64,000 nucleotides of DNA, from assembly GCA_965262115.1 (NCBI GenBank), contig OZ253496.1:2496001-2560000 (forward strand), in the 5' to 3' direction. The number at the start of each line of letters is the position of its first letter. The stretch's first letter is position 1. Source of the stretch: Nitrospinales bacterium (GTDB lineage Bacteria; Nitrospinota; Nitrospinia; Nitrospinales; VA-1). The translations under genes were made by a program, and so were the position numbers. Of this stretch, positions 647 to 63,888 are shown piece after piece. Under the pieces are notes generated by a model. It had not been told where the DNA came from. It did no database searches and saw only the letters and a list, made by a program, of their open reading frames with translations.

Positions 647-788
647 TACCCCTGCGGAGCACGAAAACTGAGGAAATACCCGTGCCGGGCATGAAGTTTA
701 AGGAAGAGGCCATCACAAATATCACGTGCTCGCCAGTAAGAGCTATTTACCCTTTCGGGGCATGAAATTTATGGAAGAGGACATCACA
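647..788 (-). repeat. Cluster of three 39-41 bp GTGAT..GGGTA mini-elements (outer 647-676+718-726, inner 677-717, third 748-788)
   Basis: Each reads TACCC...GCAYGAA...ATCAC[AG] on the + strand. Removing 677-717 restores a 39-bp copy. Confidence 0.85.
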
Positions 789-914
789 GCTACTGGCCCC
801 GCGCCTAGCGGCGGAGAAACCTCCGCCGGTAATGCCCGTGTCTTTTTGTAGCCCACAATGGGCTCGAGGCTTAATGGGCCATTGCCCATTGCCTCCACGG
901 CTAGTGGCGGTGGG

Positions 915-942
915 TTGACATTGGGAGGAAGCCTTATAGAAT
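915..942 (+). promoter_or_regulatory. Putative sigma-70 promoter of the aminopeptidase
   Basis: TTGACA-N16-TAGAAT, 26 bp upstream of the ATG at 969. Confidence 0.55.
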
Positions 943-968
943 GATCTTTCACTTTAAACAACATATCT

Positions 969-3581
969 ATGAATTCAGTTCGATATTGCAAATGCCATTT
1001 TCAAAATGGCGAGTCCGAGCACTGGGGTATCTTGGATCGCAAGGCCTTTGCCCAAAAGGGGGCGAAAGCACATTTTGCTCCGGACACTCCTTTGCTCCCC
1101 CAGCACCTTTTGCTGGACCTGCATTTTGACTGGGAAGAGGAGCGGGTCTGGGGAAACACCACCTATGACCTGATGGTCAATGGCCATGATGTGCGGGAAA
1201 TCGTGTTTGACGCTGCAAACCTGGAAATAGAGCGGGTGATGATGGGCCGTCGCACGTTAGCATTTGAAAATACCGGCGACCAGATAATCGTGTCACTGGA
1301 TAAGGCTCTCAAATATGGAGGGACCGTGCAGGTGAAGCTGTTTCATTCGGTCACCCGGCCCCCGGCAGGAGTTTATTTCACCAAACCGGATGAGGCTTAT
1401 CCGGACCGGTTCAAAACGGTCTGGACCCAGGGGCAGGATGAGGACTCCAAATATTATTTCCCCTGTTTTGATCAGCCAAATTTTAAACAGACCACCGAGG
1501 TTAAGTTGCATTTGCCCAAGGGAATGTTTGGGTTGTCCAACGGTCGTCTTATTAAAAAGAAGGAAAGCGCCGGGGAATCCTTTTACCACTATAAACTGGA
1601 AATTCCTTACTCGACCTATCTTCTCTCTATTGTAGCCGGGGAGTTTTCCGGGCATGAGAGTCGTATTGGGGGAGTTGATATCAAATGGTATGTTCAAAAG
1701 GGCCGGGAACAAGAAGGCAGGAATGCTTTTAAGGATACTGGAAAAATCATCCGGTTTTTTTCTGATTATACCGGTTACCCTTATCCCTATAAACACTATA
1801 CCCAGATCGCGGTTCCCGAGTTTATTTTCGGAGGCATGGAAAATTTCACCGTCACCACCCAGACGGACCTGACACTTCATGACAACCGAGCCAGACTGGA
1901 TCTGGACTCTAATGGATTGGTTGCCCACGAAGCCGCCCATATGTGGTTTGGCGATGTGGTCACCGCGAGAAGTTGGTCGCATGCATGGTTGCACGAATCG
2001 TTTGCCACTTATTTTGACGCACTCTACACGCGTGAGTCGAAGGGCGAGGGTGAATTCCGCTATCAATTACTGGAAGATGCGGAAACTTATTTCAGTGAAG
2101 ATGCCCACTACCGCCGTCCTATCGTGACCCATATTTATAAAGAACCTATCGATTTGTTTGATGCCCATCTTTATCCGGGAGGGGCGGTGCGACTGCATTA
2201 TTTGAAATCTCTTGTCGGAGAACCTCTGTTCCGCAAGGCCCTGACCCGGTTTCTCAAGCGTCACGAATATGGGCTGGTCGAGACGGTGGATCTGGTACGG
2301 TGTCTGGAAGAGGCCAGCGGAAAAAATTTCGATGAATGGATGGATCAATGGATTTATCGCGGTGGTTATCCCATGCTTGAGATCGGTTACCAATGGGGGG
2401 TGTCAAATCTGGCGGAGATAACGGTAAAACAAACTCAGAAAGCCGAGAAAAAAGAAGGGGCGCTGTTGTTCAAATTCCCATTGAAGATTGAGTTCTATTA
2501 TTCCAGGGGTAGTGAAAAGTTTTCGCTGGAAATTAAAAACAAAGAAGAGAAGTTCAGCTTTCACCTCAAATCCAAACCGCTGTTTTTCAGGCTGGACCCG
2601 GATTACGAGTGCCCGGCTAAAAAAGTGAAGTTGGAAATTTCCCGCTCCCTTCTGCACGAGCAGTTGAAGCGGGATAAGGACCCCATAGGGCGTATCGAAG
2701 CGGCCCAATCCCTTGTTGTCAAGGCCTCACAAACTGACACCAAGATGCTCAGCCTGTGTCTCAAAAAAGAATTACATTGGGGTGTGTCGAATCGTATCGC
2801 CAGAGCCTTAGGTAAAATCGGCGGGGAGTTCGCTCGCGATGGATTGCTTAAAGCGGTGAACAGCCGTGACGCAAAAATTCGTCGAGGCATCATCCATGCA
2901 TTGGGAGAGTTTGTGGATGATGAAAAAGTCATCCGGGCTCTGAAGAAAATTTCCAAGGGTGATCCCTCTTACAGGGTGGAAGCAGAAGCGTTGTCCTCGT
3001 TGGGCCGAATCAAGGCGAAAAACTGTAGAACGTTTCTGGAAGGTTTTCTGGGCAGGCCATCGCATAATGATATCGGACGGTCGGCCATATTCAGAGCCCT
3101 AGCCAACCTGGAAGAAGAACAAGCGTGGGCAACGTTGATTGAGGGTGCGGATTATGGTGCTGCCCGTAGCAGTCGGTTTTCCGCTATTCAGGGACTGGCA
3201 AAACTGGCTGGGCGATTTGAACATCTCAAGCCCGAAGCCATCAATGTCCTGAAGCGGTTTGCCCGGGAAACACGGGGCACTCCCTCCGCAACATTTCGCG
3301 GTAAACTGGCCGCCATTCAGGCCATGGGCGAGTTGGAAGACCTTTCGACAATTTCCACCTTGAGGAGACTGGCTGAGGGCGAAACCGATGGGCGTTTGAA
3401 ACGGAGAGCCGAAGAAACGATTGTACGCCTGTTTGAATCGGCTAAAAAACCTGGCGAGATGAAGTTGATACGATCCGACCTCGATGAATTGTTGAAGGAC
3501 AATAAATCCCTGCGTGATCGGGTGGATATTATGGAAAAACAGAAAGACGCTAAACAAAAATCCAAAAAGAAAAAAGGATAA
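969..3581 (+). CDS. M1-family (PepN-like) zinc aminopeptidase with C-terminal HEAT repeats
   Basis: GGMEN exopeptidase motif, HEAAH-x18-E zinc motif, HEAT-like C-terminus. Confidence 0.92.
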   Translation: MNSVRYCKCHFQNGESEHWGILDRKAFAQKGAKAHFAPDTPLLPQHLLLDLHFDWEEERVWGNTTYDLMVNGHDVREIVFDAANLEIERVMMGRRTLAFENTGDQIIVSLDKALKYGGTVQVKLFHSVTRPPAGVYFTKPDEAYPDRFKTVWTQGQDEDSKYYFPCFDQPNFKQTTEVKLHLPKGMFGLSNGRLIKKKESAGESFYHYKLEIPYSTYLLSIVAGEFSGHESRIGGVDIKWYVQKGREQEGRNAFKDTGKIIRFFSDYTGYPYPYKHYTQIAVPEFIFGGMENFTVTTQTDLTLHDNRARLDLDSNGLVAHEAAHMWFGDVVTARSWSHAWLHESFATYFDALYTRESKGEGEFRYQLLEDAETYFSEDAHYRRPIVTHIYKEPIDLFDAHLYPGGAVRLHYLKSLVGEPLFRKALTRFLKRHEYGLVETVDLVRCLEEASGKNFDEWMDQWIYRGGYPMLEIGYQWGVSNLAEITVKQTQKAEKKEGALLFKFPLKIEFYYSRGSEKFSLEIKNKEEKFSFHLKSKPLFFRLDPDYECPAKKVKLEISRSLLHEQLKRDKDPIGRIEAAQSLVVKASQTDTKMLSLCLKKELHWGVSNRIARALGKIGGEFARDGLLKAVNSRDAKIRRGIIHALGEFVDDEKVIRALKKISKGDPSYRVEAEALSSLGRIKAKNCRTFLEGFLGRPSHNDIGRSAIFRALANLEEEQAWATLIEGADYGAARSSRFSAIQGLAKLAGRFEHLKPEAINVLKRFARETRGTPSATFRGKLAAIQAMGELEDLSTISTLRRLAEGETDGRLKRRAEETIVRLFESAKKPGEMKLIRSDLDELLKDNKSLRDRVDIMEKQKDAKQKSKKKKG

Positions 3582-3585
3582 TGAA

Positions 3586-4158
3586 ATGAATAAGCCCTTT
3601 AATGATGACCCAATAGAAGTGCTGGTGAAAAAGTTTTTGACTCAGAACGGAACGGTTTTGGACTTGCGTTTGAAATATATCGGCGATGAGGGTCTGGAGT
3701 ACCTGGCTCAGTGTCCGGAGTTGGTCGACCTGGAAGTGCTGAACCTGGAAAGAAACGAAATCACCGACAAGGGAGTCCAGGCGTTGGCCGACTCTTCCAT
3801 CATCACGAACCTGAAGGAATTGCACCTGGAAAGAAACGAAATCGGCGATGGCGGAGCCAAAGCCATTGCCGGTTGTGCAAACTTTTCCTACCTGAACTTC
3901 TTGAACTTCTGGAAAAACAAAGTGGGGGCTGAAGGAGCGCAAGCCATTGCCAGCTCCACGATTCTGGTTAATTTAAAAAGCCTTGATCTGGCTCAAAATA
4001 ATATTGGCGATGAGGGTGCCAAGGCCCTGGCCGAAAGTGATACTTTGGCTGGACTGGAGTTGATCGAAATAGTTGGCAGTGGCCTGACCGATGAGGGGAA
4101 AAAACAACTCAAGGAATCCACCGCCTTTCCTAAACTTCAGACCCTTGTTCTGGATTAA
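3586..4158 (+). CDS. Leucine-rich repeat protein (ribonuclease-inhibitor-like, 28-aa repeats)
   Basis: Repeated LxxLxLxxNxIGDxGAxAIA units; ATG 3586 follows the upstream stop. Confidence 0.88.
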   Translation: MNKPFNDDPIEVLVKKFLTQNGTVLDLRLKYIGDEGLEYLAQCPELVDLEVLNLERNEITDKGVQALADSSIITNLKELHLERNEIGDGGAKAIAGCANFSYLNFLNFWKNKVGAEGAQAIASSTILVNLKSLDLAQNNIGDEGAKALAESDTLAGLELIEIVGSGLTDEGKKQLKESTAFPKLQTLVLD

Positions 4159-4277
4159 ACGGGTTGGTTTCTAAAAAAACTGATTAGCTTGGATGCTTTT
4201 TGACCAAGTATTCATGGTAATTGAAAATGGGTGAAATCCCCAGTATTTGCTCATGACTGTTACCCCCAGATGGTGCG

Positions 4278-5543
4278 TTAAGAACCCTTTAAAATATTCA
4301 ATCTATTTTTGAGGGACTGGCTCCAGGCGGTATTGCGGGTATTCACTGTTTCTTCGGCTTGTTGTAGGATGGGTTTTAGGCGTTCGGTATCTCCAAGTTG
4401 GTGGTAGGTTTCAGCCAGATCTATCAGGATATGGGCCTCCTCCTTCCGGTTCTCGACATATTTTGCGGTGGCGAGGCTCTGGACGAAAAATGCCGTTGCC
4501 GATTCCCATTGCCCCAGTTTCCTGTAGTTCAGGCCGATGCCTACCAGCAGTTCCAACTCTTTGTCGTGGTCTTTCTGCCGACGATAACTCTCCAAAGCAT
4601 TTAAGTAACAGTCGATGACTTTTTCAATTTTGTTTTGTTTGACGTAGACGAATCCGAGCCCGTTAAAGGAGCTACCAATGAAAGCGCTGTAGCCATTTTT
4701 TGTGGCGAGAGTCTGTTGTATTTCAAAATATTTTCGAGCCTGGTCGAGATTTCCAGATATGGCGTACGCATCACCAAGGCTGGCAAGTAGTCCGCATTGC
4801 TCTTCTTTGTCGCCTAGCTCTTTTGTGATTTCAAGTTCCTGGAGAAAATAAGCAATGGCTTTTTGAGTCTGCCCTAATCGGGTATAGGCCAGCCCGAGGG
4901 CGGAGATGGCATTTTTTTCGGCTTGTTTGTCGGAAACGGCACGCGCTTTTTTGAGGAAAATAGTTTCGGACTCCACCACCATCCGTAAATCAAGTGCGCT
5001 GGAAGATTTGAGATCGGAGGGTTTGCCGGGCTTGGCATCGTAACCTGCAAGTCGCTGAAAACTTTCTTCAACAGACAGAGACATTTTCTCTTCTACCTCC
5101 CTTTTAAAGTTCAGCTCCTCCTCAATATCTTCCAGAAACTCCTCCAGGTCTTCTTGTAAAAACGCGCTTCTCAATTTATACGATTTAAAATCACTAAGAT
5201 GTTTTAACGCTTCATTGCCACTTTCCGGCAGTGTTGCTCCATCAAGCAGTAAAGAGATAATTATGATGTCTAAATTTATTGCGGAAATGATTTCAAAGTT
5301 AATTCTATCGCCTTGAATCGATCCGTCAATAGTCAGGGCAGAGTGTTCTGAGTAGGACTCTTTGTTGCCGATTACAATAATCAATGCATCACAAAGGGAA
5401 AGGTTTTCGTAGAGGGTGGGGAGTCCATTCGGATTTTCCAAAAATATACATTGACCCTCCAGAGATAACTGGCATTCCCCGATGATATTCTGAACTGTGG
5501 TTTTTAATCTGGGGTCGGTTAGGCTGAAATAAAGAGTTGGCAT
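4278..5543 (-). CDS. TIR-like domain plus tetratricopeptide repeat protein
   Basis: N-terminal CDALIIVIG...RINFEIISA..IIISLLLDGATLP..LKHLS pattern of TIR_2 domains; about 5 TPRs at the C-terminus. Confidence 0.72.
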   Translation of the reverse strand: MPTLYFSLTDPRLKTTVQNIIGECQLSLEGQCIFLENPNGLPTLYENLSLCDALIIVIGNKESYSEHSALTIDGSIQGDRINFEIISAINLDIIIISLLLDGATLPESGNEALKHLSDFKSYKLRSAFLQEDLEEFLEDIEEELNFKREVEEKMSLSVEESFQRLAGYDAKPGKPSDLKSSSALDLRMVVESETIFLKKARAVSDKQAEKNAISALGLAYTRLGQTQKAIAYFLQELEITKELGDKEEQCGLLASLGDAYAISGNLDQARKYFEIQQTLATKNGYSAFIGSSFNGLGFVYVKQNKIEKVIDCYLNALESYRRQKDHDKELELLVGIGLNYRKLGQWESATAFFVQSLATAKYVENRKEEAHILIDLAETYHQLGDTERLKPILQQAEETVNTRNTAWSQSLKNRLNILKGS

Positions 5544-5787
5544 GTTGGGGATTTTTTTACTAACCCGTGCCAATGTGAAGGGGTATCGATTTTAGTTAAT
5601 TTTAGAAGTACGTTCAGTCGTCCTTTTTGAACAGTTCCTTCAACCGGGCCTGGCAACGGAGTTCTCGGGTCAACTCTATCATGATTTTCTCGTTAACGCT
5701 TAAATTCTGTATGCTGGCTTTAGAGAAATAATGGGGAAACGCTGCCCACAGGCTGGGGAGATCCCGGAATTCGTTGTAAGTAGTTAG

Positions 5788-5865
5788 ACGGTCCTGCCTG
5801 GCTTAATCTGCTTTTTCTTGTGTAGCCCATAATAACACCTAAATGGCGTTAGCTGGGGCAGCCCC
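5788..5865 (-). mobile_element. IS1595-family (IS1016-like) left-end remnant
   Basis: Terminus GGGGCTGCCCCAGCTAAC followed by ATG-GYTRKSRLSQ/QDRL, resembling the IS1016 transposase N-terminus; similarity lost beyond this. Confidence 0.55.
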
Positions 5866-6016
5866 AAAAATTTCATTGAACCGTTGTTTTTACATTTTGA
5901 GCCGGTTTTCCAACCAGTTTCGCAAGATTTTGTGAATTGATGGCGTGGCGTACTTTGGGACGTGAAAGCCGTGCAAGGTGGGAGGAGAGAGAAACTGCTG
6001 ATTTATAGCGGTGTCT

Positions 6017-8128
6017 TTAAATTATTTCCATCAACTCCATATAGTTACCCATGAAGTTTTGCAGGACTTTATGCAACGGTTGGTGTTTTGGGTCTGTGAT
6101 GTCGGGGTCCTGGTCAATGAGATGAAAGGCTTCTTTGCGGGCTATTTCCAGCACCCGGATATCGCGGAGCAGGTTGGCGATTTTTAAAATAGGCATCCCC
6201 GATTGCCGGGTGCCCATAAAATCTCCGGGGCCGCGGATTTTTAAATCCTCTTTAGCGATGACGAATCCATCGCCGGAGTTTTGCATGGCTTTCATCCGAG
6301 CCTGTCCTTCTTCGGATACAGGATGGTAGGCCATCAGCAGACAATGGGAGGCGTGGTTTCCTCGGCCCACACGTCCGCGTAGTTGGTGCAATTGGGCCAG
6401 GCCGAACCTTTCGGCATGTTCAATAATCATAACCGTGGCGTTGGGAACGTCGATGCCCACCTCAATGACCGTTGTGGAAACCAGAACCTGAATTTCTTTT
6501 TGGAGGAACCGGGACATGATATCCTGGCGATCTTCTTTTTTAAGTTTTCCATGAATCAGGCAGGCGGTGAAATTTGGAAAGCGTTCCTGGATAAAATCCA
6601 AAACCGTAACAGCGGCTTTTAGGTCCATGACCTCCGACTCTTCGATTAAGGGACAAACCACAAACGCCTGTCTGCCTTGTTGCAACTGTTCTTCCATTAT
6701 GTTGTAGGCTTTTTCCCGCCGGTTCTCAAAAAACAGGTCGGTAGCAATTTTTTGCCGCCCTGGTGGACACTCATCTAAAAGTGAAACATCCATATCTCCG
6801 TAGAGGGTGAGCGCGAGGGATCTTGGGATGGGTGTGGCTGTCATGATGAGAAGATGCGGATGGTCGCCTTTTTTGCCGATGGCTTCTCTTTGCATGACTC
6901 CGAATCGATGTTGTTCGTCAATCACTGCCAACCCGAGTTTTTTAAATTGAATATCTTTTTGAATCAGGGAGTGGGTTCCAACAACAATGTGTGTTTTTCC
7001 GGTCCGTACATCTTCAAAATGGCTTTGCTGTTCTTTGCCTTTGAGCGCGCTGGTTACCAAGCTGAGTTTGATGCCCAGTTTTTCACAGAAGGGGTGGATA
7101 TTTAAATAATGTTGTTCGGCAAGAATTTCTGTCGGAACCATTAACGCAGATTGCGTTCCGTTATCCACAGCTGTCAACAGGGCGATAAGAGCGACAATGG
7201 TTTTGCCGCTCCCGACATCTCCCTGAATCAGTCGGTTCATGGGTTTCTCTTTTTCCAAGTCTTCCATAATTTCACCGAGAACCCTTTTTTGTGCTCCCGT
7301 CAAGGTGAAGGGCAAAAGCTTTGCAAACTTCTTGATGAGTTCTCCGCGGGTTTTAAAGGAGGTCCCTGTGCTCTCTTCTCCCACACGGTTTTTTTTAAAG
7401 GCCAGGGCCAACTGGATCAGGAACAGTTCTTCAAAGACCAGACGCTTTTGCGCTGGGGTCTGAAAGGCATCCAACTCTCTCAGGCAGGAACCTTGTGGGG
7501 GAAAATGAGATTGGGCAAGAGCCTCTGACCGGGGAGGTAAATTATGACGCCGAACCAGGTCATCGGGAAGAAACTCCTCGATCAGATGCAGGTACTTATC
7601 GAGCACATTTTTTATAATGGTGCGCATGGACTTGAGGTGTAGCCCATCGGTGACAGGGTAAACGGGGACAATCTTGCCGATTTCAAGAGATCTGACATTT
7701 TCTCCTGATACTTGCTCGGTATCCGGGTGGATGATCTCCAATCCGGAACGTTTGTTGATAGTAGGTTTTCCTGAAAGAATGATTTTTTGCCCTGTTTTAA
7801 ACTTTTCTTTCATATAAGTTTCGTTAAACCGGAACCATTTGGCTCGGACGATTCCTGTCTCATCCTGAACGATGACTTCAAATACCCTTTTTCGACGTCC
7901 CATGAACATTATTCCGGCATTCAGGACTTCTCCTGTGAGTGTGACATATTCACCGGGAACAGCTTGGGAGATTTTTTTGAATTGGGTCCGATCTTCAAAG
8001 CGGAAAGGCAGGAAATAAAGGCAGTCTTCAATGCTTGTTAGACGCAATTTTTCAAGAAGAACCGCTTTTCTGGGGCCGACCCCTTTTATGAATTGTATGG
8101 GATCGTCCAGGGAAGGTGTGTGTTTCAT
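6017..8128 (-). CDS. recG: ATP-dependent DNA helicase RecG
   Basis: IKGVGP start, QGDVGSGKT, DEQH, MTATPIPR, LHQLRGRVGRG, RGPG motifs. Confidence 0.97.
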   Translation of the reverse strand: MKHTPSLDDPIQFIKGVGPRKAVLLEKLRLTSIEDCLYFLPFRFEDRTQFKKISQAVPGEYVTLTGEVLNAGIMFMGRRKRVFEVIVQDETGIVRAKWFRFNETYMKEKFKTGQKIILSGKPTINKRSGLEIIHPDTEQVSGENVRSLEIGKIVPVYPVTDGLHLKSMRTIIKNVLDKYLHLIEEFLPDDLVRRHNLPPRSEALAQSHFPPQGSCLRELDAFQTPAQKRLVFEELFLIQLALAFKKNRVGEESTGTSFKTRGELIKKFAKLLPFTLTGAQKRVLGEIMEDLEKEKPMNRLIQGDVGSGKTIVALIALLTAVDNGTQSALMVPTEILAEQHYLNIHPFCEKLGIKLSLVTSALKGKEQQSHFEDVRTGKTHIVVGTHSLIQKDIQFKKLGLAVIDEQHRFGVMQREAIGKKGDHPHLLIMTATPIPRSLALTLYGDMDVSLLDECPPGRQKIATDLFFENRREKAYNIMEEQLQQGRQAFVVCPLIEESEVMDLKAAVTVLDFIQERFPNFTACLIHGKLKKEDRQDIMSRFLQKEIQVLVSTTVIEVGIDVPNATVMIIEHAERFGLAQLHQLRGRVGRGNHASHCLLMAYHPVSEEGQARMKAMQNSGDGFVIAKEDLKIRGPGDFMGTRQSGMPILKIANLLRDIRVLEIARKEAFHLIDQDPDITDPKHQPLHKVLQNFMGNYMELMEII

Positions 8129-8186
8129 GGCCCCAATATTAACGTGCAAGTCGTGTGGGAGCAAGGAGTTCTGTTGCGATTGAGCG

Positions 8187-8215
8187 TTGACAGAAAAATT
8201 TTGTGGAAGTATCCT
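8187..8215 (+). promoter_or_regulatory. Putative sigma-70 promoter of relA/spoT
   Basis: TTGACA-N17-TATCCT. Confidence 0.6.
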
Positions 8216-8298
8216 TAACTCAAAGGTTTATCCTTTTTTCATCGACCTTTTTGCGGACCTCTGGTCGAGTAGAAAAAAATGGAGGTTTCATTCCTGCT

Positions 8299-10524: not shown

Positions 10525-10537
10525 CGGGAACTAAGCG

Positions 10538-10732
10538 CTACTTGATAGCCTTAGTTATTTTTCCTGACTTGATGCAACTGGTGCAGATTTTCATGGTCTT
10601 TATAGAACCCCTCATCACCACACGCAGCTTTTTTATATTTGGTTTCCATTGTCGGCGGGTTTTATTATTCGCATGGCTGACATTGTTGCCAAATTGGGGT
10701 TTTTTATCACAAATCTCACATTTTAGGGACAT
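10538..10732 (-). CDS. rpmB: 50S ribosomal protein L28
   Basis: [28 protein letters not shown]...CTSCIK. Confidence 0.97.
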
Positions 10733-10814
10733 CAAATTCTCCGAAATAGATTGTCTTGAAATTGGTTAGATGCTAGCATAACCCTGTTAAAGGGGCAAGA
10801 GTGAATAATCCATT

Positions 10815-11045
10815 ATGATTGTCGATAAAAATACCACGATCAACGAGATTCTCCATGCCTACCCTGAGGCCATGAAGTTTTTTAATGAAAAACAAATGGC
10901 CTGTGGCGGTTGCTTTTCTGTAAAGTTTGATACCTTGGAAAACGGGGCCTTAATGCATGGCATGGAGGTCAGCGCCTTGATTAGCCAACTCGAACAATTT
11001 TTGCAAGCCCTTCCTATCCGTATCGCCTCCGCCCAGCACAAATAG
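10815..11045 (+). CDS. DUF1858 domain-containing protein
   Basis: IxEILxxYPEA..F...MACGGC...TLENGAxMHG pattern. Confidence 0.8.
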   Translation: MIVDKNTTINEILHAYPEAMKFFNEKQMACGGCFSVKFDTLENGALMHGMEVSALISQLEQFLQALPIRIASAQHK

Positions 11046-11380: not shown

Positions 11381-11487
11381 CTAAACGGTTTCCCGAACCT
11401 AATAATCCGAAATCCAAATATTGTTCTTTGGTCTAGCTGGCGTTTGGGCTCTGAGAAGCAGTTAAAACCTTGAGAATTTTTTCCCCT

Positions 11488-21069: not shown

Positions 21070-21167
21070 CCGGCGAGCCGCCGGTGACCGTGATATTCTT
21101 CCTTAACCTTCGTGAGCCTGTGATATCCCCTTCGCTAAATTCATGCCCGGAACGGGTAGAACGGGTA
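21069..21167 (+). repeat. ACCGGCGAGCCGCCGGT palindrome followed by a nested pair of GTGAT..GGGTA mini-elements (outer 21089-21118+21159-21167, inner 21119-21158)
   Basis: Direct reading; removing the inner copy restores a 39-bp copy. Confidence 0.85.
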
Positions 21168-22074: not shown

Positions 22075-22395
22075 CTTGAACTACTCTCAAGCTTTAGTGG
22101 AGATTTCTAATTTCTAACGAGAAAACTGTCTACACTTTGTCTACAAGAATTCCACAATAAAGCGGCCATCCAAGTAGGACTAACCGCTTAAAAATTTATA
22201 ATATAGCCAGTTGTGGAAACCTTACCGTAGCAAGATTATTGGGTTTCACGGCCTCGTTATATTCTTCCCAAACTCTCGGGCCCCGAAGCAACTGTGTTAA
22301 ATGTCAAGTGCTGGCAATGAGATTTTCATTCCAGAGTGTTTTTGTTTTGATCATGGTATTGATGATCGTTAATAACTTTCTCATGCATGCGGTAA

Positions 22396-23301
22396 TGAAC
22401 TTCCCCTGTTTTAGTGGACAGTTAGTTAAGAGGCATAGGCCTGTTTCTCGAATTCGGCAGGGCTGAGATAGCCGAGATATTAGTGACGGCGTTGCCGATT
22501 ATAAAACACTTCGATATATTCAAAAATATCCTTCTTTGCTTGCTGACGGGTTTTGTAGTTCCGGTTATGAATGAGTTCCACTTTGAGAGTATGGAAAAAA
22601 CTCTCCGCCACGGCGTTATCCCAGCAATCGCCCTTCCGGCTCATACTGCACTCTATCCCATGAACATTGAGCAAGGCTTGAAAATCGTTGCAGGCATATT
22701 GAACCCCCCGGTCAGAATGGTGAATCAATCCCGGTTTCATGCCGCCGTTCTTCATTGCCATATTTAAAGCTCTCATTACCAACCAACGGGTTATCCAACG
22801 ATCCATGGCCCAACCAATAACTTTACGGTGGAATAAATCCAGCGTCACCGCAAGGTATAACCAGCCCTCTTGAGTCGGGATATAGGTGATATCCGAAACC
22901 CAGCATTGACCGGGCTCAGCAACATTAAACCGCCGTTGCAGTTTGTTTTTTGCCACCGGGTGATTATGTTTGGAATCGGTTGTCACCCTAAACTTTCTTT
23001 TGTGCTTGGCAACGATTCCATGCTCGCGCATAAGACGGGCAATACGATGCCTGCCAATGGCATATCCCTTGTCTTTCAAGTCCTCATGAATTCTGGGACT
23101 GCCATAAGTCTGGCGACTCTTCTTATAAACGGTTTTGATCTCATCAACCCATCGCTGCTTCTCACGGCTCCTCAGGCTCTCGGGGCGGCTCAGCCAGGCA
23201 TAGAACCCACTTCGTCCCACTTCCAGAACCCGGCACATCGGGCTTACCGGAAATGCTTCTCGATGATCCCGTATAAACCGATATCTCATTGGGAACCCTT
23301 C
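22396..23301 (-). mobile_element. Truncated IS3-family element: right IR plus orfB; orfA and left end missing
   Basis: IR TGAACTTCCCCTGTTTTAGTGGACA at 22396; orfB motifs [25 protein letters not shown]. Confidence 0.92.
22426..23289 (-). pseudogene. IS3 OrfB transposase with premature stop
   Basis: TAA at 22480 replaces Ser in RRH*YLGYLSPAEFE; natural stop at 22426. Confidence 0.85.
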
Positions 23302-23446
23302 GAGTACCCCTTGTATGTTGTTCATAAGGGGAATTTGTAGTAGTTGTACCTGTGAGCCCTGTGGGAAGCCGGTTTTGTGTTTTCCACAAGGCTCACAGGT
23401 ACAACTACTACAAATTCCCCTTATGAACAACATACAAGGGGTACTC
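23302..23446. repeat. Long inverted repeat with 57-bp perfect arms
   Basis: 23302-23358 is the exact reverse complement of 23390-23446; imperfect inner stem. Confidence 0.95.
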
Positions 23447-23595
23447 ATGCCGGAAACCGCACCTTGTGGGACGGGAGGCAAGCCTACTCTTGACTGCAAA
23501 TTAGCGGTGATCCAGATCGGTTTGGTTTTTGGAGTCGAAAAAAAATCCAACCCTCCCCAACCCCCTCCCTATGAAGGGAGGGGATATAAAAGTAT

Positions 23596-23633
23596 TACCC
23601 CTGTGGGGCCGAGGGATTGGGAAGAATATCACG
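23596..23633 (-). repeat. GTGAT..GGGTA mini-element (38 bp)
   Basis: TACCCCTGTGGGGCCGAGGGATTGGGAAGAATATCACG. Confidence 0.75.
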
Positions 23634-29890: not shown

Positions 29891-30097
29891 GAGAGCTTTG
29901 CATAACCTGAGATTACCCTTTCAGGGCACGAAAGTTTTGGTGAAATATCACGTCTTCATCGCGTACGCTCTTCAGAATGACAAAATAGCTCTTTATTGTC
30001 ATGCCGAGCTAGTGATATTTGACCTTTGAATTCTTGCCCTGTAGGGGTATCTCGAAGCATCTCGCTTTTTTGATTTTTCGACTTACGCAAAGGTCTC
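29891..30097 (-). mobile_element. MITE (GAGACCTTTGC.. TIRs) carrying two inserted 39-bp mini-elements (29914-29952, 30011-30049)
   Basis: Colinear with the reverse complement of 46234-46361 once the two inserts are removed; flanks CCTTGGCAG and CTTAGGCAG look like a decayed 9-bp TSD. Confidence 0.88.
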
Positions 30098-42068: not shown

Positions 42069-42108
42069 TACCTCGTTGGGGCACGAAATTGATGTTGAAG
42101 ATATCACG
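42069..42108 (-). repeat. GTGAT..GGGTA mini-element (40 bp)
   Basis: TACCTCGTTGGGGCACGAAATTGATGTTGAAGATATCACG. Confidence 0.8.
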
Positions 42109-46096: not shown

Positions 46097-46413
46097 CCGG
46101 CGAGCCGCCGGTGGCAGTGTGATAGCTCGTTGAGCCGAGGGTATCGTTCTAGCTATCGTGATATTTGTAATATCCCCAACATTAGCCTTCATGCCCGGCA
46201 CGGGTACTTCCCAAGCTTTTACCCTTTCAGGGCGAGACCTTTGCATAAGTCGAAAAATCGAAGAATCGAGATGCTTCGACAAGCTCAGCATGACGATACT
46301 GGGCCATTTTGTCATTCTGAGGAACAAGGTGACGAAGAATCTCGACTTATGCAAAGCTCTCTTTCAGGGCATGAAGGCAAATAAAGAAATATCACACGTG
46401 CTCCGCAGGGGTA
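46096..46413. repeat. Composite repeat: palindrome 46096-46112, outer mini-element 46157-46413 containing inner copies 46166-46206 and 46220-46396
   Basis: Removing the inserts gives CGTGATATTCTTCCCAAGCTTTCGTGCTCCGCAGGGGTA (39 bp). Confidence 0.85.
46234..46361 (+). mobile_element. 128-bp MITE with 20-bp TIRs and 9-bp TSD
   Basis: TIRs GAGACCTTTGCATAAGTCGA and TCGACTTATGCAAAGCTCTC (19/20 match); TTTCAGGGC duplicated at 46225-46233 and 46362-46370. Confidence 0.92.
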
Positions 46414-46554: not shown

Positions 46555-47295
46555 ATGAGTGTTTCCCCAAAACTTCAACTTCAGCAACTGATCCTTTTGC
46601 AGAACCTGGATGATGAGATTGGTGGGCATAAAAAACTACTCGCTGAAATTCCTGTTCAGTTAGATGCTGGTCGCGCGGAACTGGAAGATATAAAGAAAAT
46701 CCTTTCAATTGCTAAAGAAGAAATAGACACATTACAAAAAAATCGTAAGGCTATTGAGTCGGAGGTTCAGGGCGAAAATGACCATATGGCGAAAGCCAAG
46801 ACGAAACTAACAGCGGTAAAAACCAACAAGGAATACACCGCTATTCTTGCCGAGGTCGATGCGATTAAGGTAAAGGTTGCCGGGCTGGAAGATAAAGAAC
46901 TGGAAATCATGGAAGCCCTTGAAGAAAAGCAAAAGGAGATTCCGGGAGTCGAAAAAAATTTCAAGGAAGAGGACGCCCGCTTCCAGGAATACAAAACAAA
47001 AAAAGATGGTGAATTGAGCAGGATGAAGCAAGAGTTGGATGTCTTTATCGCCAAGCGTGAGACGCTAATGGAGCAGGTTGATAAAGTGTTAGTGCAACGC
47101 TATGAAAAAGTTGCGAAATCCCGCGAGGGCAGGGCGGTCGCCTTGTTGCAGGAAAATATTTGCCAGGGATGTTTCCAGCAGATTCTACCGCAGATGGTGA
47201 TAGACGTTAAAGTCGGTGAAAAAATCCAGCAATGCTCAAACTGCTTGAGTTTTTTATATTGGGAAGAAATTCCAGAAGCCGCAACGCCGAAGTAA
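46555..47295 (+). CDS. C4-type zinc ribbon coiled-coil protein (DUF164)
   Basis: L..LQNLD start, long coiled coil, CQGC..CSNC. Confidence 0.88.
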   Translation: MSVSPKLQLQQLILLQNLDDEIGGHKKLLAEIPVQLDAGRAELEDIKKILSIAKEEIDTLQKNRKAIESEVQGENDHMAKAKTKLTAVKTNKEYTAILAEVDAIKVKVAGLEDKELEIMEALEEKQKEIPGVEKNFKEEDARFQEYKTKKDGELSRMKQELDVFIAKRETLMEQVDKVLVQRYEKVAKSREGRAVALLQENICQGCFQQILPQMVIDVKVGEKIQQCSNCLSFLYWEEIPEAATPK

Positions 47296-47661
47296 ACCGG
47301 GTGATCGCTGTTTCGGCTTTATGGCCGGGAGAGAGGAAAGTCCGGGCTCCACAGGGCAGGATACTCCGTAACGCGGAGTGAGGGCGACCTTAAGGAAAGT
47401 GCCACAGAAAATACACGGCCTACCCGGCTCATGTCGGCGGCAAAGGTGAAAAGGCGAGGTAAGAGCTCACCAGTACCGTTGGTGACAGCGGTAGCTTGGT
47501 AAACCCTATCCGGAGCAAGATCAAATAGGAAAGTGCTTGAGGGCGGCCCGTCCGATACTTTCGGGTTGATTGCTTGAGCCTGCTGGCAACAGCAGGCCTA
47601 GATTAATGGTCACCACTTCATGCTTCATGAAGTACAAAACCCGGCTTATGGTTTACTTCGG
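47287..47661 (+). ncRNA. rnpB: RNase P RNA (class A)
   Basis: GAGGAAAGTCCGGGCTCC, AGTGCCACAGAAA, ACAAAACCCGGCTTA; P1 helix CCGAAGTAAACC/GGTTTACTTCGG. Confidence 0.97.
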
Positions 47662-48022
47662 CTACCCGGCCTGCTAGGCGCAGGGCCAAAATACAATAGC
47701 TTTTGTTTGCTGGCAAAGAGTTGTCTCGGCTTGAAGAGCAGTTGCTGTTTGTCTGTCCTGTGTTGTGCTACGTCACTTGCCTCCATGCCTAGAGGCTGGA
47801 GTCTCGTCATGTGGCTCCGAATTTGGGGTCTGGGAGTGCCACGCTGTGCAGGGCGTTGACGAGCAACACCATTATTGCCAGCAGGGTGATCGGTAGAATG
47901 TAATGGGAAACAGGTGGTCGGCGTAGCTGCTGGGGGCAAATAGCCATGACTTTCTATGCGTTCCCGTGTGCCCTACAGCTTGCAATAATATTTATGCCAC
48001 GAAGTGTGCTATAAAAGTCATA

Positions 48023-53991: not shown

Positions 53992-54042
53992 AGCATTGTT
54001 TTACCTTCGATTAATTTTTTCACTTTTTCACCCTGTCTAAGC

Positions 54043-57464
<3,422 letters not shown>

Positions 57465-57474
57465 GTCAAACCCT

Positions 57475-58788
57475 TCAGCGGACAGCGGATGAGTGGACTC
57501 GTCGGCGGATTGGCCGTTTCGCGGGTCTTCGACCGTCAGGTTTCCTGGCTCTCGGAGGGGGACCGCGCCGCTTTCGTATCGGAGGCTTGCCTTCCTTTTC
57601 TTCCAGAAACAATTCCTCTTCGGGCCAGGATACGGGGATTTTGTTTTTCAGGTAATCCTCGACCCGTTCCAAATGCTGGGCGAAATCTTCACAGCAAAGT
57701 GTGATGGCGGTGCCCTTGTTTCCTGCTCGTGCGGTTCTGCCTATGCGATGCACATAGTCTTCCGCGTCCTGCGGTAAATCATAATTAATGACATGCGTGA
57801 TATTGTCGATATGCAGTCCTCGCGATGCCACGTCCGTGGCGATGAGGATATCGAGAGCACCTTCCTGAAATTTTTCCAGTACCCGAATTCGGGCCTTCTG
57901 GTGAAGGTCGCCGCTAATTTGTCCGGCGTTAAAGCCGTTGTGGTTCAATTTCCACTCAAGAATCTCGCATTCAATTTTAGTGTTGGAAAAAATCAGAACT
58001 TTTTCCCCGGCCTCTTTTTTCATCAAACCTAAAAGGAGGTTGAATTTTTCATGTTGTCCGACGTGATAGAGTATCTGGGTGACCTCGTCCACCACCGCTT
58101 TTTCCGGCTCGATGGCTACCCTGACCGGATTGTTCATGTGCTCGTAACACAACTCCATAACCCGGTGATTGAGCGTTGCCGAAAATAGCATGGACTGGCG
58201 CTTGTCATAGGGCGAACAGTTGCGGAATAAATAACGCAGGTCGGCAATGAATCCCATATCAAACATGCGGTCGGCTTCGTCCACGACCAGAACTTCCACC
58301 TGTTTCAAACTGAAGAATTTTTGCTTGTAGAAATCGATCAACCGGCCCGGTGTGGCGATCAGGATGTCCACCCCATCCTTGATCTGGTTTATCTGTTTGT
58401 CATAATCCACTCCGCCGATAACACAAACCGTGCGGAACGAGCAATGCTTGCCTAAGAGTAGGGCATCCTTTTCGATTTGCCTTGCCAGTTCGCGGGTCGG
58501 AGCGATGATCAATGCTCGTGGACCGGCTTTTCCTTTAGGCGCGAGTGGTGGAGTGTTTTCTAACAGCCGGGTGAACAGGGTGATCAAAAACGCCGCGGTT
58601 TTTCCCGTTCCGGTCTGTGCTTGCCCTGCCAGGTCCTTGCGCCCAAGAGTGATGGGCAGAGACTTGCTCTGGATCGGTGTGCAGGTTACAAATTTCGCGT
58701 CGCGAATGCCCTTTAAGACTAGTTCTGGCAAGGCCAGAGATTCAAAGGTCAGTAGTTCCAAAAGATGCTCCGGGTGGGCACTTCTCAC
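57475..58788 (-). CDS. DEAD-box RNA helicase (RhlB-like)
   Basis: AQTGTGKT, DEADRMFD, SAT, HRIGRTAR; start position uncertain. Confidence 0.93.
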   Translation of the reverse strand: MRSAHPEHLLELLTFESLALPELVLKGIRDAKFVTCTPIQSKSLPITLGRKDLAGQAQTGTGKTAAFLITLFTRLLENTPPLAPKGKAGPRALIIAPTRELARQIEKDALLLGKHCSFRTVCVIGGVDYDKQINQIKDGVDILIATPGRLIDFYKQKFFSLKQVEVLVVDEADRMFDMGFIADLRYLFRNCSPYDKRQSMLFSATLNHRVMELCYEHMNNPVRVAIEPEKAVVDEVTQILYHVGQHEKFNLLLGLMKKEAGEKVLIFSNTKIECEILEWKLNHNGFNAGQISGDLHQKARIRVLEKFQEGALDILIATDVASRGLHIDNITHVINYDLPQDAEDYVHRIGRTARAGNKGTAITLCCEDFAQHLERVEDYLKNKIPVSWPEEELFLEEKEGKPPIRKRRGPPPRARKPDGRRPAKRPIRRRVHSSAVR

Positions 58789-59159
58789 AGGGACTCTTGA
58801 GAGTTAGAGCCTTAATTTTCAAGTGGTTAAAAATCTTTGTTGAAGATAAAGGTCATTATGAGGGGCTTACCCTTGATTTGCAACTCAAATTTCATTTTTC
58901 TTGACTTTGGAGGGGGGGAAATGTTTAAATTATCCTTCAATTTTGATTCCGGTAGTTACCCAGATTCTAGGCCCGCCTGCACTTGATTTCAAAGAATTTT
59001 CCCTTTGATTTTCAATGGTTTTTGTTTCAGAAGCGGGACGAACCGGAAAATTGGAATAAGGCCGGAAAGTGGGGCAATTGTTATCGTTTTTTATCCGGCC
59101 TTTACCGGATAGGCTCGTTTTAGATGAACCACGGGTTTTTCGCGTTTTGAGGTGAATTT

Positions 59160-60872
59160 GTGATTCAACATGATGTGCTGATTGTGGGTGCCGGTCTCGC
59201 CGGGATGCGTTGTGCCCTGGAAGCCTGTAAGGAGTTGGATGTTGCCGTGTTGACCAAGGTGTATCCTTCCAGATCCCATTCCGGTGCGGCGCAGGGGGGT
59301 ATTGCCGCTTCTTTGGGAAACTCGGAGCCGGACAGTTGGGAAGAGCATATGTACGACACCGTCAAAGGTGGCGACTTTCTCAGCGACCAGGATGCGGTGG
59401 AAGAGTATGTCAAAGCCGCTCCCAGGATTATCTATGAATTAGAGCATATGGGTTGTGTTTTCAGCCGTACGCCGGATGGGAAAATTGCCCAGCGCAGTTT
59501 CGGTGGGCATTCCAAACCGCGCGCCTGTTTTTCTGCCGACCGCACCGGCCATGCCATTCTACATGCCCTGCATGAACAACTCATGAAGAATGCGAAATCC
59601 GTTAAAATTTATAGCGAGTGGTACATGCACTCGCTGGTTGTTGATGGCGATCGTCGTTGTAACGGTGTGGTGGTCAGCAATATCCAGACCGGGGAAGTGG
59701 AAGTGATTCAGGCCAAGGCCGTGGTATTTTGTACCGGGGGATATGGCAGGGTATACAAATTCACTTCCAATGCTTTTGCCAGTACGGCCGATGGAGTCAT
59801 GGCCGCGTTCGATGTAGGGATTCCCCTGGAAGATTTGGAATTTGTCCAATTTCATCCATCGGGTTTGTATCGCCAAGGAATTTTATTTTCTGAAGCAGCG
59901 CGGGGAGAAGGAGCTTATCTCCTTAATGGAAAAGGCGAACGCTTCATGGAACAGTATGCCCCGTCGCGCATGGAACTGGCCCCCCGCGACATCGTAGCTC
60001 GGGCCGAGCAGAGCGAAATGGATGCCGGGCGTGGTGTGAACGGTGAAAACTGTATTCATCTTGACCTGCGCCATTTGGGTGAGGCGCGGATCATGGAACG
60101 TCTGCCGCAAATCAGGCAACTGGGTATCGACTTTTTGGGTGTAGACTGCATCAACGAATGTTTGCCCATTCAGCCTACTGCGCATTATTCGATGGGTGGT
60201 ATCCCGACCGATAAATATTCTCACGTAATTCTTGATGAAAAAGGCACCCGCATGAACGGATTTTTTGCCGCCGGGGAATGCGCCTGTGTCTCCGTTCATG
60301 GTGGTAACCGGCTGGGTACAAATTCCCTTCTGGAAGCAACGGTGTTTGGAGAACGTGCGGGTAAATCCGTACTCGAATATGCCGTGGGCATTGACTACGG
60401 AAACGTCAACGAAGGGCAGGAAAAAGCCCGGGTCCTGAAAAAGTTTGAGGATATTTTTCAAAGAGATGGCTCGGAAAGCTATAACGACATCCGTAATGAG
60501 ATGAAGGATATAATGATGAGCCATTGCGGGGTTTTTCGCGATGAGAAAAAACTCAAAGTCTGTATTGAAACCTTGAAAGGACTGCAGGAAAGGTTCAAAA
60601 ACGGTAGAGTGACCGATAAGGGCAAGCTGTTCAATACAGAAATTTATGAAATTCTGGAATTGGGAAACATGCTAGGGATTTCCCGGCTGATCGCCAATGG
60701 TGCCCTGCAAAGAAAGGAAAGCCGGGGCGGACATTTCCGCACGGATTTTCCGAAACGCGATGACGAAAATTTTCTCCATCATTCAATGACCTACGACTCC
60801 CCAGATGGACTGGTGGTGAAAAAGAAATCGGTCGTGATCACCAAATATCAACCCGCAGAAAGAACTTATTAA
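59160..60872 (+). CDS. sdhA: Succinate dehydrogenase/fumarate reductase flavoprotein
   Basis: [10 protein letters not shown] covalent-FAD motif, QFHP, HYSMGG, RLGTNSL. Confidence 0.95.
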
Positions 60873-61813
60873 TGGCGACTTTCAGGATCAAGCGCTTCAA
60901 TCCGGAAAAACAACCAGAACCTTATTTTGAGGACTTCCAACTGGACATCCAACCGGGGATTACCCTTCTGGATTGCATGAACCAGATCAAGTGGACATTG
61001 GATGGAAGTTTTACTTACCGGATGTCCTGCCGCAGTGCCATTTGCGGGTCCTGCGCCGTTAAAGCGAACGGTCACGCCCTGCTGGCTTGCCAACGTCAGG
61101 CCGAACACATTGTCGATAACGACGAGACCATTACGCTAGAACCTTTGGGCAATATGAAGCCGATCAAAGACCTGGTGGTCGACTTCACCCCGTTCTGGGA
61201 CAAGGTCAACAAGGTCAAACCTTATCTGGAACCCAAAGAAGCCCCGCCGGAAAAAGAACGTCCCCAAAGTCAGGAAGAATTTTTGAGGATCGACGATTCA
61301 AGCACCTGCATCATGTGCGGGGCCTGCTATTCCGACTGCAATACCCTCGAGGTGGATGAGAACTTCCTCGGGCCGGCGGCTCTTGCCAAGGCGCAAAGAT
61401 TTGTTGGCGATTCCCGTGACTCCCAAACCTTCGAGCGGGTTAAAGAACTCAGCGAACCGGGCGGCATCTGGGACTGCACCCACTGCGGCGAATGTGTCGA
61501 GCGTTGCCCCAAACCGGCGCGTCCGTTTGACCGCATCAAAGAAATCATGACCGTGGCCCTGGAGCAAGGTGTGCACAACAATAACGGAGCCCGGCACGCA
61601 CTATCCTTTTTTAATTCCGTAAAAAGAAGCGGTAATCTGAATGAGAACAGGATTCCCGTTGAGTCGATGGGATTTTTCAATATTTCCGGATTGTTGAGCC
61701 TGCTTCCTGTCGGGTTGCGCATGTTCTTTAAGGGCAAGGTTCCCCCGATCATTCATCACTCCATTGATGAAGTGGACGATGTTAAACGAATTTTCAAGGA
61801 GTTGGATCAATGA
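60872..61813 (+). CDS. sdhB: Succinate dehydrogenase iron-sulfur subunit (type E, extended)
   Basis: [33 protein letters not shown]. Confidence 0.95.
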
Positions 61814-62688
61814 AGTTTGCCTTGTTTACCGGATGTGTTGCCAAAGGGGCAACCCGGGAACTGATGCTTTCCACCACCAAAGCCGCCGAAGGCCTCGGGT
61901 TTGAATTCATAGAAATGAAAAGCGCTTCCTGCTGTGGTGCCGGGGTGGTTTCCGAAAAAAGCCCTCTGCTTGCCGATGCGCTGAACGCGCGTTCGTTTTC
62001 CATCGCCGAAAAACAAGGGCTCGATATCGTCACCATCTGTTCGACCTGCCAGGGCACCTTGAAAAAAACTGAAGCTCAGCTCAATGCAGATGCCGAATAT
62101 AAAAAGAAGGTCAACGACATCCTCGAGGAGGGTGGGCACCAATATAGCGGCAAGACACGGATCAAACATTTCGCCAACATTCTCGCTACTGATGAAGGCA
62201 TGGCGAGGTTGAAGGAACGCATCAAAAGACCCCTGACCGGGTTAAAGGTTGCTGCGTTTTATGGTTGTTATGTCCTGCGTCCTTCAGAAAACTCAGACTT
62301 TGAGAATCCGGATAATCCCACAGGTATGGAAGATATTTTTGCAGCACTGGGCGCAACACCGGTTTATTATCCCAGTCGCATCAAGTGTTGCGGGTTTCCC
62401 ATTGTTATGATGAACAAACCGGCTTCTCTTGATATGTCGGGCAACGCCCTGCTGGAGGCGATCGATCACGGCGCCGATGTTGTGGCGACCGGATGTCCGC
62501 TTTGTCATTTGAGCCTCGATTCTTATCAGCCGGAAATTGAAATTTTGCAAAAGAAAAACAATTCCATCCCCGTTCTGCACCTTCCCCAACTGGTTGCACT
62601 GGCCTTGGACTATTCCCCCAGCGAACTCGGCATGGATAGACACATCGTCTCCACCCTCAAAATCAACCAGATCCTCGCTACCACTTAG
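61810..62688 (+). CDS. sdhE: CCG-domain (HdrB-like) SDH anchor subunit
   Basis: Two CCG domains (GC..CCG..CxxC); follows sdhB. Confidence 0.88.
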
Positions 62689-62689
62689 T

Positions 62690-62810
62690 CCCGGCGAACC
62701 GCCGGTGGCCGTGATATTCTTCCAAAGCTCTCCGGAGTACTCGTGTCGGTGTTATGTCAAAACTTTAACCTTCATGCCCCGAAGGGGTATGTGATAATTC
62801 ACCTTAACTA
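62690..62810 (+). repeat. Palindrome plus mini-element cluster (partial 62710-62739, full 62750-62789, partial from 62790)
   Basis: CCCGGCGAACCGCCGGTGGC then CGTGATATTCTTCC..., TGTTATG..TTCATGCCCCGAAGGGGTA|TGTGATA. Confidence 0.8.
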
Positions 62811-62895
62811 TTAAAAAATTTTCTTCATACAAAATGGCACGATGAACCAAAAATGGTTGTAAAGTAAGATAGAGGTAAGAAAATTAAGAATCAGT

Positions 62896-63624
62896 GTGAG
62901 CGATGAACCCGCTGAAATAATACTCTTAAAAATAAAAACTTTAAATAAAGTGGCGAACCGGGAACATATTACACTGCTCAGGAGTTCAGTAGAGAGGTGG
63001 AACATTTGGAGAAAAAGCAATCCAAACATCGAGCCCGATCTGGATCGCGTCGACTTCAATGGCGCTAACCTGAGCAATGCCAACCTCAGAAAAGCTAATT
63101 TCTATATGACCCTACTCAACGGCGCCAATTTGCAGGGCGCGAACCTCACCAAAACCTTCTTCGCCGGTTCGGATTTGCGAGGCGCCAACCTCAACGAAAC
63201 CGATTGCCCGGGAGTGAAGTTCAATGGTGCGGATTTATGCGGATGCTCCTTCAAGAAAGCGAAACTGAGAAAAGTAGATTTCAGTGACCGCGATCTTCGC
63301 GACGTCGACTTCAGTGAAGCCGACCTGAGAAGAGCCGATCTACGAAAGTCTAATCTTGAAAAAGTAAACTTCTTCAAAGCCGATCTTCGTAAGACCTTGC
63401 TCACTGAAGCCAATCTCACAGAGGCGTATCTGTCTTCGGCGTGGTTGCAGGAGACCGACTTACAATGGGCCAACCTCAGCAAGGCTATCTTGCGTTATTC
63501 CGTTAACCTGACCCCCGCCCAGGTCCAATCGGCGAAGATGGACCGCGAAACCAAAGTTCCCCACTACCTGAAGATCCACTGGATTTCTGAAACGGATTTC
63601 CGCTGCGAAAAAAAGACAGGGTAG
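62896..63624 (+). CDS. Pentapeptide repeat protein
   Basis: WNxWR..P.I.PDL leader followed by A[ND]Lxx repeats. Confidence 0.9.
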   Translation: MSDEPAEIILLKIKTLNKVANREHITLLRSSVERWNIWRKSNPNIEPDLDRVDFNGANLSNANLRKANFYMTLLNGANLQGANLTKTFFAGSDLRGANLNETDCPGVKFNGADLCGCSFKKAKLRKVDFSDRDLRDVDFSEADLRRADLRKSNLEKVNFFKADLRKTLLTEANLTEAYLSSAWLQETDLQWANLSKAILRYSVNLTPAQVQSAKMDRETKVPHYLKIHWISETDFRCEKKTG

Positions 63625-63849
63625 AGAATCTGATGCCGCGACCGCTTTCTTTAACTTCCCTTTGCTAAACCTTAGTCAATAGTTCAGAGTTGCTACCCAG
63701 CAAAAACTGCGGGACATTTGCGGGACTTTTCAAACTAACTCAAGCTTATTCTCAATATGCTGGTGCTTCTTTAAGGTATTAAGAACTAGGTAGGTTATCA
63801 GATAAGCCGCCCAATCATGAGCGGTTAAAGACGCGGGGTTCGCTGGCCT

Positions 63850-63888
63850 CGTAATATTCTTCCTAAACTCTCGTGCCACGGAGGGGTG
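63850..63888 (+). repeat. GTGAT..GGGTA mini-element (39 bp, diverged)
   Basis: CGTAATATTCTTCCTAAACTCTCGTGCCACGGAGGGGTG. Confidence 0.75.

Follow-up and report, generated by a model that had tools for sequence, protein, structure and literature searches.

A 64,000-nucleotide stretch of a Nitrospinales genome (GenBank assembly GCA_965262115.1, contig OZ253496.1, positions 2,496,001 to 2,560,000 of the forward strand; hereafter, the window) contains multiple copies of a very short repeat, hereafter the unit, with the consensus N-GTGATR-(11-15 mostly pyrimidine bases)-TTC-N'-TGCCC-x-GNA-x'-GGGTA. The unit is a real, mobile DNA element of 39-41 bases that resides in intergenic regions. The new findings of the present analysis are the pairing between the two ends of this element (N:N'), the rewriting of a few flanking bases at filled sites, a weak target motif, and an IS110 element that parasitizes the unit hairpin. 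The unit bears on the question of how repeats of fewer than 50 bases propagate when no transposase serves them: its ends are exact, its fold covaries, its targets share a weak motif, and its insertions leave a visible footprint.

Copy number, distribution and mobility

The genome that holds the window (G000; 2.68 Mb in a single contig) carries 303 scored copies of the unit, 229 of them distinct and 295 with a length of 39-41 nt, and the count rises to 332 once nested copies are peeled away. The full pattern occurs 230 times in this genome and never in an order-4 Markov control; for the strict right end, the counts are 248 and 2, respectively. As proposed in a preliminary description made from the window sequence alone, the copies are non-coding: only 6 of 302 are located inside open reading frames (ORFs) that start with ATG and encompass at least 200 amino acids, although such ORFs account for 66% of the genome. 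Most copies reside inside other repeats, of which the CGTC-type repeats are the commonest host; units also form head-to-tail arrays of 2-5 and nest in one another, in both orientations. Kilobase-long arrays of CGTC-type repeats and units, broken by an IS5 element, were observed as well (L043, L044).

The full pattern was found in 20 of the 22 relatives from the same genus (0 to 337 copies per genome) and in none of the 16 sampled genomes from other families. The right end is present in 31 of 92 Nitrospinota genomes, which represent 6 of 27 genera, and the titles of the database records that contain it mostly refer to Nitrospina-type bacteria. A search of Rfam, suggested in the preliminary description, returned no match at gathering scores, the unit is unlike the CRISPR arrays of these genomes, and no description of this family was found in the literature searched, ISfinder lying outside that search. 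Full units are also found on two viral contigs (L400, L401), which might thus transfer them from one genus to another. In a Firmicutes genome (L040, L075), tandem repeats end in a unit-like hairpin motif that is not accompanied by the GTGAT end.

Mobility is apparent from the comparison of G000 with two relatives that are ~95% identical to it, G013 (1.6 Mb compared) and G019 (1.2 Mb compared). Among 442 unit-orthologue comparisons with the read parts of these genomes, 364 lacked a local anchor, 37 showed a shared unit, 29 were otherwise different, and 12 were absences of a single unit, of which 9 were exact in length. A looser pass yielded 15 single-unit events, 13 of these exact, one with a deviation of -1 and one of +1. 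At orthologous empty and filled sites, no target base is duplicated. Presence/absence among relatives thus bears out the earlier view of the unit as a mobile, non-autonomous element of near-minimal size, with asymmetric ends and no target-site duplication, and the comparison of orthologous intergenic regions proposed at the time revealed exact empty sites. The insertions were also described as clean; this holds for the length (13 of 15) and for the lack of a duplication but not for the target itself because the bases at positions -4 and -3 are often altered, as detailed below. The pair of sites within the window from which the claim originated withstands scrutiny: when the two units are removed from the miniature inverted-repeat transposable element (MITE) at 29891-30097, the remaining 129 nt can be aligned to the empty copy (46234-46361, 128 nt), the only gap being an unrelated one of 1 nt.

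End pairing, target choice and flank rewriting

The 3' part of the unit is a hairpin, with x:x' pairing in 275 of the 303 copies and a GNA loop in 285; GNA triloops are stable in DNA. The outermost base of the unit, N, is complementary to N' at the foot of this hairpin. The two form a Watson-Crick pair in 372 of 430 distinct units from three genomes, vs 194 expected, and the type of the pair switches inside 5 of 20 clusters of units with similar spacers (at least 3 members each). The covariation score of 10 window copies was reached by none of 500 shuffles. Covariation supports a folded single strand. A near-fixed G2:C pair adjoins N:N'. Together, these two pairs would bring the 5' end up to the base of the 3' hairpin, and the two ends of the unit are likely held side by side. 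If the ends were joined, the modeled stem would run across the junction, with the N:N' pair predicted in 179 of 210 joins. The junction hairpin is predicted to fold better on the unit strand (-4.4 vs -3.1 kcal/mol), and this strand is favored because of a G-T pair and the loop.

Target choice was assessed on 137 site classes, over which the flanks are non-random, with G at -5 in 71 classes, C or G at -2 in 109 and A or T at +2 in 109. The resulting motif, G-n-R-S-n|n-W, is weak. The earlier statement that there is no obvious target motif is therefore accurate inasmuch as no fixed motif exists but misses this preference. The end of the unit itself, GGGTA, agrees with the G-n-R part of the motif, and no fixed position of a hairpin in the targets was seen. 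The possibility that the spacer serves as a linear guide for the target was considered and rejected: an early signal with z up to 5.7 disappeared on the 137 site classes, where no register exceeded z 3.0 and the best single position among 800 tests reached z 2.6.

The left flanks of inserted units differ from the expected host sequence in a specific manner. Where one unit has inserted immediately 5' of another unit's loop, the host arm would be expected to read TG-CC-C-x but mostly reads TG-AG-C-x. Of the 18 distinct hairpin sites that hold an insert, 14 have AG at positions -4 and -3, with 6 insert clusters and 7 host clusters covered, vs none of 355 empty units. A pattern with these two bases left free matched 85 rows from 17 of 70 genomes, with AG in 66, CC in 17 and AA in 2. 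Genus g15 contributes 30 of these rows, and a natural repeat of that genus may produce the same string; the safe count is 39 of 41 rows with AG in the genus of the window, whereas none of the 14 rows from g16 and g19 has AG. In three orthologous pairs, the empty relative has CC and the filled genome AG (G000 positions 1346882, 2081146 and 2442661), and mismatches between orthologous pairs are most frequent at -4 (4 of 13) and -3 (5 of 13). The CC-to-AG change recurs in a second, unrelated host repeat, where 8 of 10 filled sites carry it; the eight commonest empty forms of this repeat (145 sites) lack it.

Base -1 pairs with x' of the host in 25 of 26 AG rows, two of these being duplicates. A single origin of AG would require paired changes in a broken hairpin, so the change likely arose several times. 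More generally, like units at unlike loci share bases -4 to -1 in 38, 27 and 46 pairs, vs 4.8, 5.2 and 5.5, respectively, under permutation, and natural AGC-N sites, which are possible donors of AG, are common targets. Fold-back templating was rejected as the source of AG because the upstream bases would yield AA, which appears in only 2 of the 85 rows.

Mechanism and the search for the moving enzyme

We consider plausible, albeit slightly short of probable, a mechanism in which the unit moves as a folded single strand that retains a short left tail of donor sequence. The first two bases would pair beside the 3' hairpin, bringing both ends together, and a protein would read the hairpin and cut after GGGTA as well as after similar G-n-R-n-n sites in the target. 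A few bases of the old left flank would then enter with the unit, anneal to the target and often replace target bases. Host repair would remove one of the two competing flaps and could thereby leave both changed and unchanged sites. This mechanism would explain the exact length, the lack of duplication, the mixed outcomes and the preference for repeated hosts. With the substrate features so defined, this mechanism can be tested with oligonucleotides; furthermore, a natural scar-free inserter with a free middle of 11-15 bases would be of interest as a tool.

A number of observations weigh against the tail-annealing mechanism, which poorly explains why the change is always to AG and why position +2 sometimes differs. 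The fold energies of single units are no better than those of shuffles, the structures predicted for linear units lack the two-pair N:N' helix, and circular folding is near 0, which implies that the pairing would need a protein or joined ends. With regard to the flanks, genus g19 is unchanged in 12 of 12 cases, and the hosts GAAGA, TATT and GAGCT never change, several of the unchanged hosts already reading GAGC. Base -1 follows the host, not the donor, in 3 of 4 informative rows, so that the mechanism would need matching at -2 and -1. AG is found at -4 and -3 in only 16 of the 137 site classes; random donors would give varied changes, and hence a biased donor pool would be needed. The sharing of flanks is in part leftover host homology, given the 1.5-2.1-fold enrichment at -7, -6 and at +5, +6, and the P values are overstated because the copies are related. 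On the right side, +2 differs in two orthologous pairs and TCTC is found in 30 of 45 filled GAGCT sites, differences that a tail on the left only does not explain. Finally, neither an enzyme nor an intermediate was found, and there was no exact excision joint among the matches listed, which come from assembled contigs only.

The unit might represent a new kind of minimal mobile DNA, with ends folded together, targets chosen by their likeness to the old flank, and a few flank bases written without a change in length, mobilized by an enzyme outside the HUH, DDE, IS110 and reverse transcriptase classes, possibly, a small GIY-YIG nuclease associated with the CGTC repeats. We advance this classification tentatively, and doubts about it prevail.

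The GIY-YIG nuclease is the best candidate for the mover, although taken by itself the assignment is unlikely. The gene, which encodes 96 amino acids (G000:C1:2573200-2573538; L020:1483-1821), belongs to a mobile cassette that is absent from the orthologous site in G019. Among 80 metagenome loci of the gene (L320-L399), 68 have CGTC-type repeats next to it, vs 6 of 93 distal windows. A close match is present in 14 of the 23 genomes of the genus, and these hold more units (P 0.006, with kin not independent). Conversely, the gene is missing from G004 despite the 44 units in this genome, and a true unit was found at only 1 of the 80 metagenome loci. For the CGTC repeats themselves, which are described as lacking a dedicated enzyme (PMC3733652), the GIY-YIG nuclease is a candidate enzyme in its own right.

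The preliminary description attributed the movement to a HUH transposase acting in trans. In a specific form of this explanation, a Y1 enzyme similar to those of RAYTs or IS200, encoded by a lost or visiting gene, would paste a flank-free single-stranded circle after G-n-R-n-n, the flank changes occurring later or by repair. The lack of target-site duplication, the asymmetric ends, the 3' hairpin with a short loop, the head-to-tail arrays and the agreement between GGGTA and the target motif all fit such an enzyme, as does the position of the pairing partner 5' of the hairpin foot, which resembles the IS200/IS605 guides (PMC8266576). Y1 genes are present in 7 of the 23 genomes of the genus. However, none was detected in G000, G013 or G007 (no match of note for PF01797 and NF047646), even though G000 and G013 differ by recent insertions, and no unit lies within ~1.5 kb of the 8 Y1 loci of other genus members. 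The GTAG tag is absent, no guide-target pairing was found, and the fixed CC-to-AG change falls outside HUH chemistry as described in the sources consulted. No replication-strand bias is apparent from the strand counts in G000 (159 vs 143); for non-nested units of G013, they are 30 vs 40. Nor were long copies identified in which the two ends of the unit flank an ORF, apart from an IS110 element in the loop discussed below: the 34 right ends that remained in G000 and in the compared portions of G013 and G019 lie next to host genes or repeats. The HUH attribution thus lacks support, and we rate the HUH explanation as rather unlikely. For the IS91 transposase, nothing above the cut-off was found in 5 unit-rich genomes, a control query likewise returning no match.

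A separate observation concerns strand distribution in G062, where right ends are split 18 vs 2 by contig strand and all 13 listed on C1 are on one strand, a possible replication bias.

It is also conceivable that no dedicated enzyme is involved and that the unit spreads by gene conversion or template switching between repeated hosts (CGTC repeats, a CTAG repeat and other units) and rides on the IS5 MITE, with the fold only setting the boundaries. Given the location of most copies inside repeats, the filling of one site by many variants, the flank changes on both sides, the failure to find an enzyme and the many absences in relatives that are absences of a whole MITE, this scenario has some appeal. 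Nevertheless, the 137 different site classes include unique sequence, the ends are exact at unrelated sites, and the host-specific x:x' pairing is retained around the rewritten bases; moreover, the conserved unpaired bases (GTGAT and the G and A of the loop) suggest reading by a protein. We regard conversion without an enzyme as distinctly unlikely.

Least probable, and in our assessment very unlikely, is a nucleic-acid-guided or copying enzyme, either an IS110 bridge recombinase or a reverse transcriptase, with AG copied from a fixed guide: the uniform change to AG, the recognition of the unit hairpin by an IS110, and the targets of diversity-generating retroelements, which likewise employ a fixed-loop DNA hairpin and undergo marker coconversion (PMC3240598), point in this direction. 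However, IS110 reaches high numbers in G000 alone (24 matches; a single partial one in G013, zero in G019) and leaves a CT core on both sides where the unit leaves none, the reverse transcriptase is patchy, with a broken gene in G000 and none detected in G007 and G019, and no guide sequence was found.

Several other candidates were rejected. Of 5 unit-rich genomes, 4 encode Cas1, but their arrays bear no resemblance to the units, and the units lack duplications. In G000, cas1 loci are located near C1 positions 2126375, 2643996 and 768805, and an array was detected only at the third; the G013 counterparts of the first two contain long arrays. Among the 4 matches to tyrosine recombinases in G000, a unit is near only one fragment, and most of the ORFs that lie between two units are host genes.

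The IS110 element itself is a parasite of the unit. There are 24 Pfam matches to this family in G000, corresponding to ~25 copies (for example, C1:2144779-2145975), which sit only in the GAA loop of the unit with a CT core and with the unit arm on the right in all 25 and on the left in 24. This insertion is the only case of two unit ends flanking an ORF. The left end of the element holds both target halves in a predicted internal loop, as candidate target guides, and bridge RNAs likewise hold target halves in an internal loop (PMC11208160). One copy has a duplicated left end. The unit and its IS110 form a new pair of an IS110 element and its target, with a readable candidate guide, and such targeting of the unit is a REP-like behavior.

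Copies in the window and comparison with known systems

All 14 copies reported in the preliminary description are present in the window: 8 pass the automatic score, 4 are host units that amount to 39-40 nt after removal of their inserts, and 2 are degenerate. At the left edge, a host unit on the minus strand (647-726; 39 nt without its insert) carries, after its base 9, a 41-nt unit of the T:A type in the same orientation (677-717); the G013 orthologue is the host without the insert, which is exactly absent. A further 41-nt unit of the T:A type on the minus strand (748-788) is common to G000 and G013. On the plus strand, the host unit at 21089-21167 is split just 5' of its GNA loop by the 40-nt unit at 21119-21158, which thus sits in the host hairpin; the left arm of the host reads TGAGCC, vs TGCCC-x in intact units, an instance of the rewritten flank. 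The left part of a plus-strand unit at approximately 22253-22288, missed in the preliminary description, is cut at the GAA loop by an IS110 remnant (22289-22397). The remnant is in turn cut by an IS3-family element, whose transposase (22480-23550) is one of ~17 copies. Next comes a 38-nt degenerate unit of the C type (23596-23633, minus strand) that is below the automatic score but aligns.

Two 39-nt units share one MITE, in which they occupy CGTC-type repeats: a C:G type on the minus strand (29914-29952), in a GAAGA|ATC site, and an A:T type on the plus strand (30011-30049), in a GAGCT|TGTC site. A 40-nt degenerate unit of the C:G type (42069-42108, minus strand), again below the automatic score but alignable, is missing from the G019 orthologue. 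The most intricate arrangement is found at 46157-46413, where a plus-strand host unit (39 nt without inserts) holds two further units. One of these, on the plus strand (46166-46206, 41 nt), occupies a site that is empty in G019 and filled in G013 by a unit with a different spacer; the other (46220-46396, 40 nt) is in the reverse orientation, on the minus strand, and its hairpin is interrupted by the 128-bp MITE at 46234-46361. The latter is an ordinary IS5-type MITE with a 9-bp duplication, which hosts units elsewhere and lies outside the unit family. The duplication is seen in 34 of 53 copies in G000, and a 1173-bp IS5-family element in G013 has the same ends (L199:8795-9736).

Toward the right edge, all on the plus strand, there are a decayed unit at approximately 62710-62739, also missed previously and intact in the G013 orthologue, a 40-nt unit (62750-62789) followed head-to-tail by a truncated one from 62790 (intact in G013), and a 39-nt degenerate unit that ends in GGGTG (63850-63888). 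The window also encodes a class A RNase P RNA (47289-47663).

Among known systems, the non-autonomous derivatives of IS200/IS605, known as PATEs, share with the unit the lack of target-site duplications and terminal inverted repeats, the unlike ends, the hairpin and a likely single-stranded state. The unit, however, has a single hairpin, no fixed tetra- or pentanucleotide target, an internal pairing base and no TnpA, and no autonomous copy with the same ends was found in G000 or the compared parts of G013 and G019. IS91/ISCR elements are defined by a Y2 transposase and a fixed tetranucleotide target; the sites of the unit show no fixed motif, whereas the transposase search was accompanied by a silent control. 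MITEs mobilized by DDE transposases, including the neighboring IS5 MITE, differ in having terminal inverted repeats and target duplications, and IS110 derivatives in having a core repeated at both junctions.

The small dispersed repeats (SDRs) of Nostoc punctiforme studied by Elhai et al. in 2008 reportedly have no target-site duplication and no known enzyme, and their spread is said to have been attributed to recombination together with their flanks. Like the unit, they are very small and described as possibly mobile (PMC2884548), but with ~20 bp they are shorter than the 39-41 nt of the unit. The CGTC repeats described by Di Nocera et al. (2013; PMC3733652) are likewise small repeats devoid of an enzyme of their own but constitute a separate sequence family, into which the unit inserts. 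The IS110 of G000, with its CT core and repeat target, resembles the IS621-type IS110 elements that target REPs (PMC11208160); this likeness is confined to the parasite and does not extend to the unit itself.

A close analogy is with the repetitive extragenic palindromic sequences (REPs), including BIMEs and REPINs, that are served by RAYTs. Both are short, intergenic, high-copy, hairpin-forming, lineage-restricted and targeted by IS110, and an intermediate whose free 5' tail might pair has been put forward for REPINs (PMC3116915). As judged by the definition in PMC8266576, the unit departs from REPs in the foot of its hairpin, which reads TTC-N', and in the lack of the GTAG tag. It also moves as a single unit of fixed length, gained or lost exactly, not as an inverted doublet; an unpaired spacer of variable sequence makes up half of its length; its flanks are rewritten; and the genomes richest in units have no RAYT gene. 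Overall, although the unit differs from REPs, IS200/IS605 elements, MITEs and IS110 elements in the characters tested, it works like a small mobile repeat of the REP/REPIN or SDR type.

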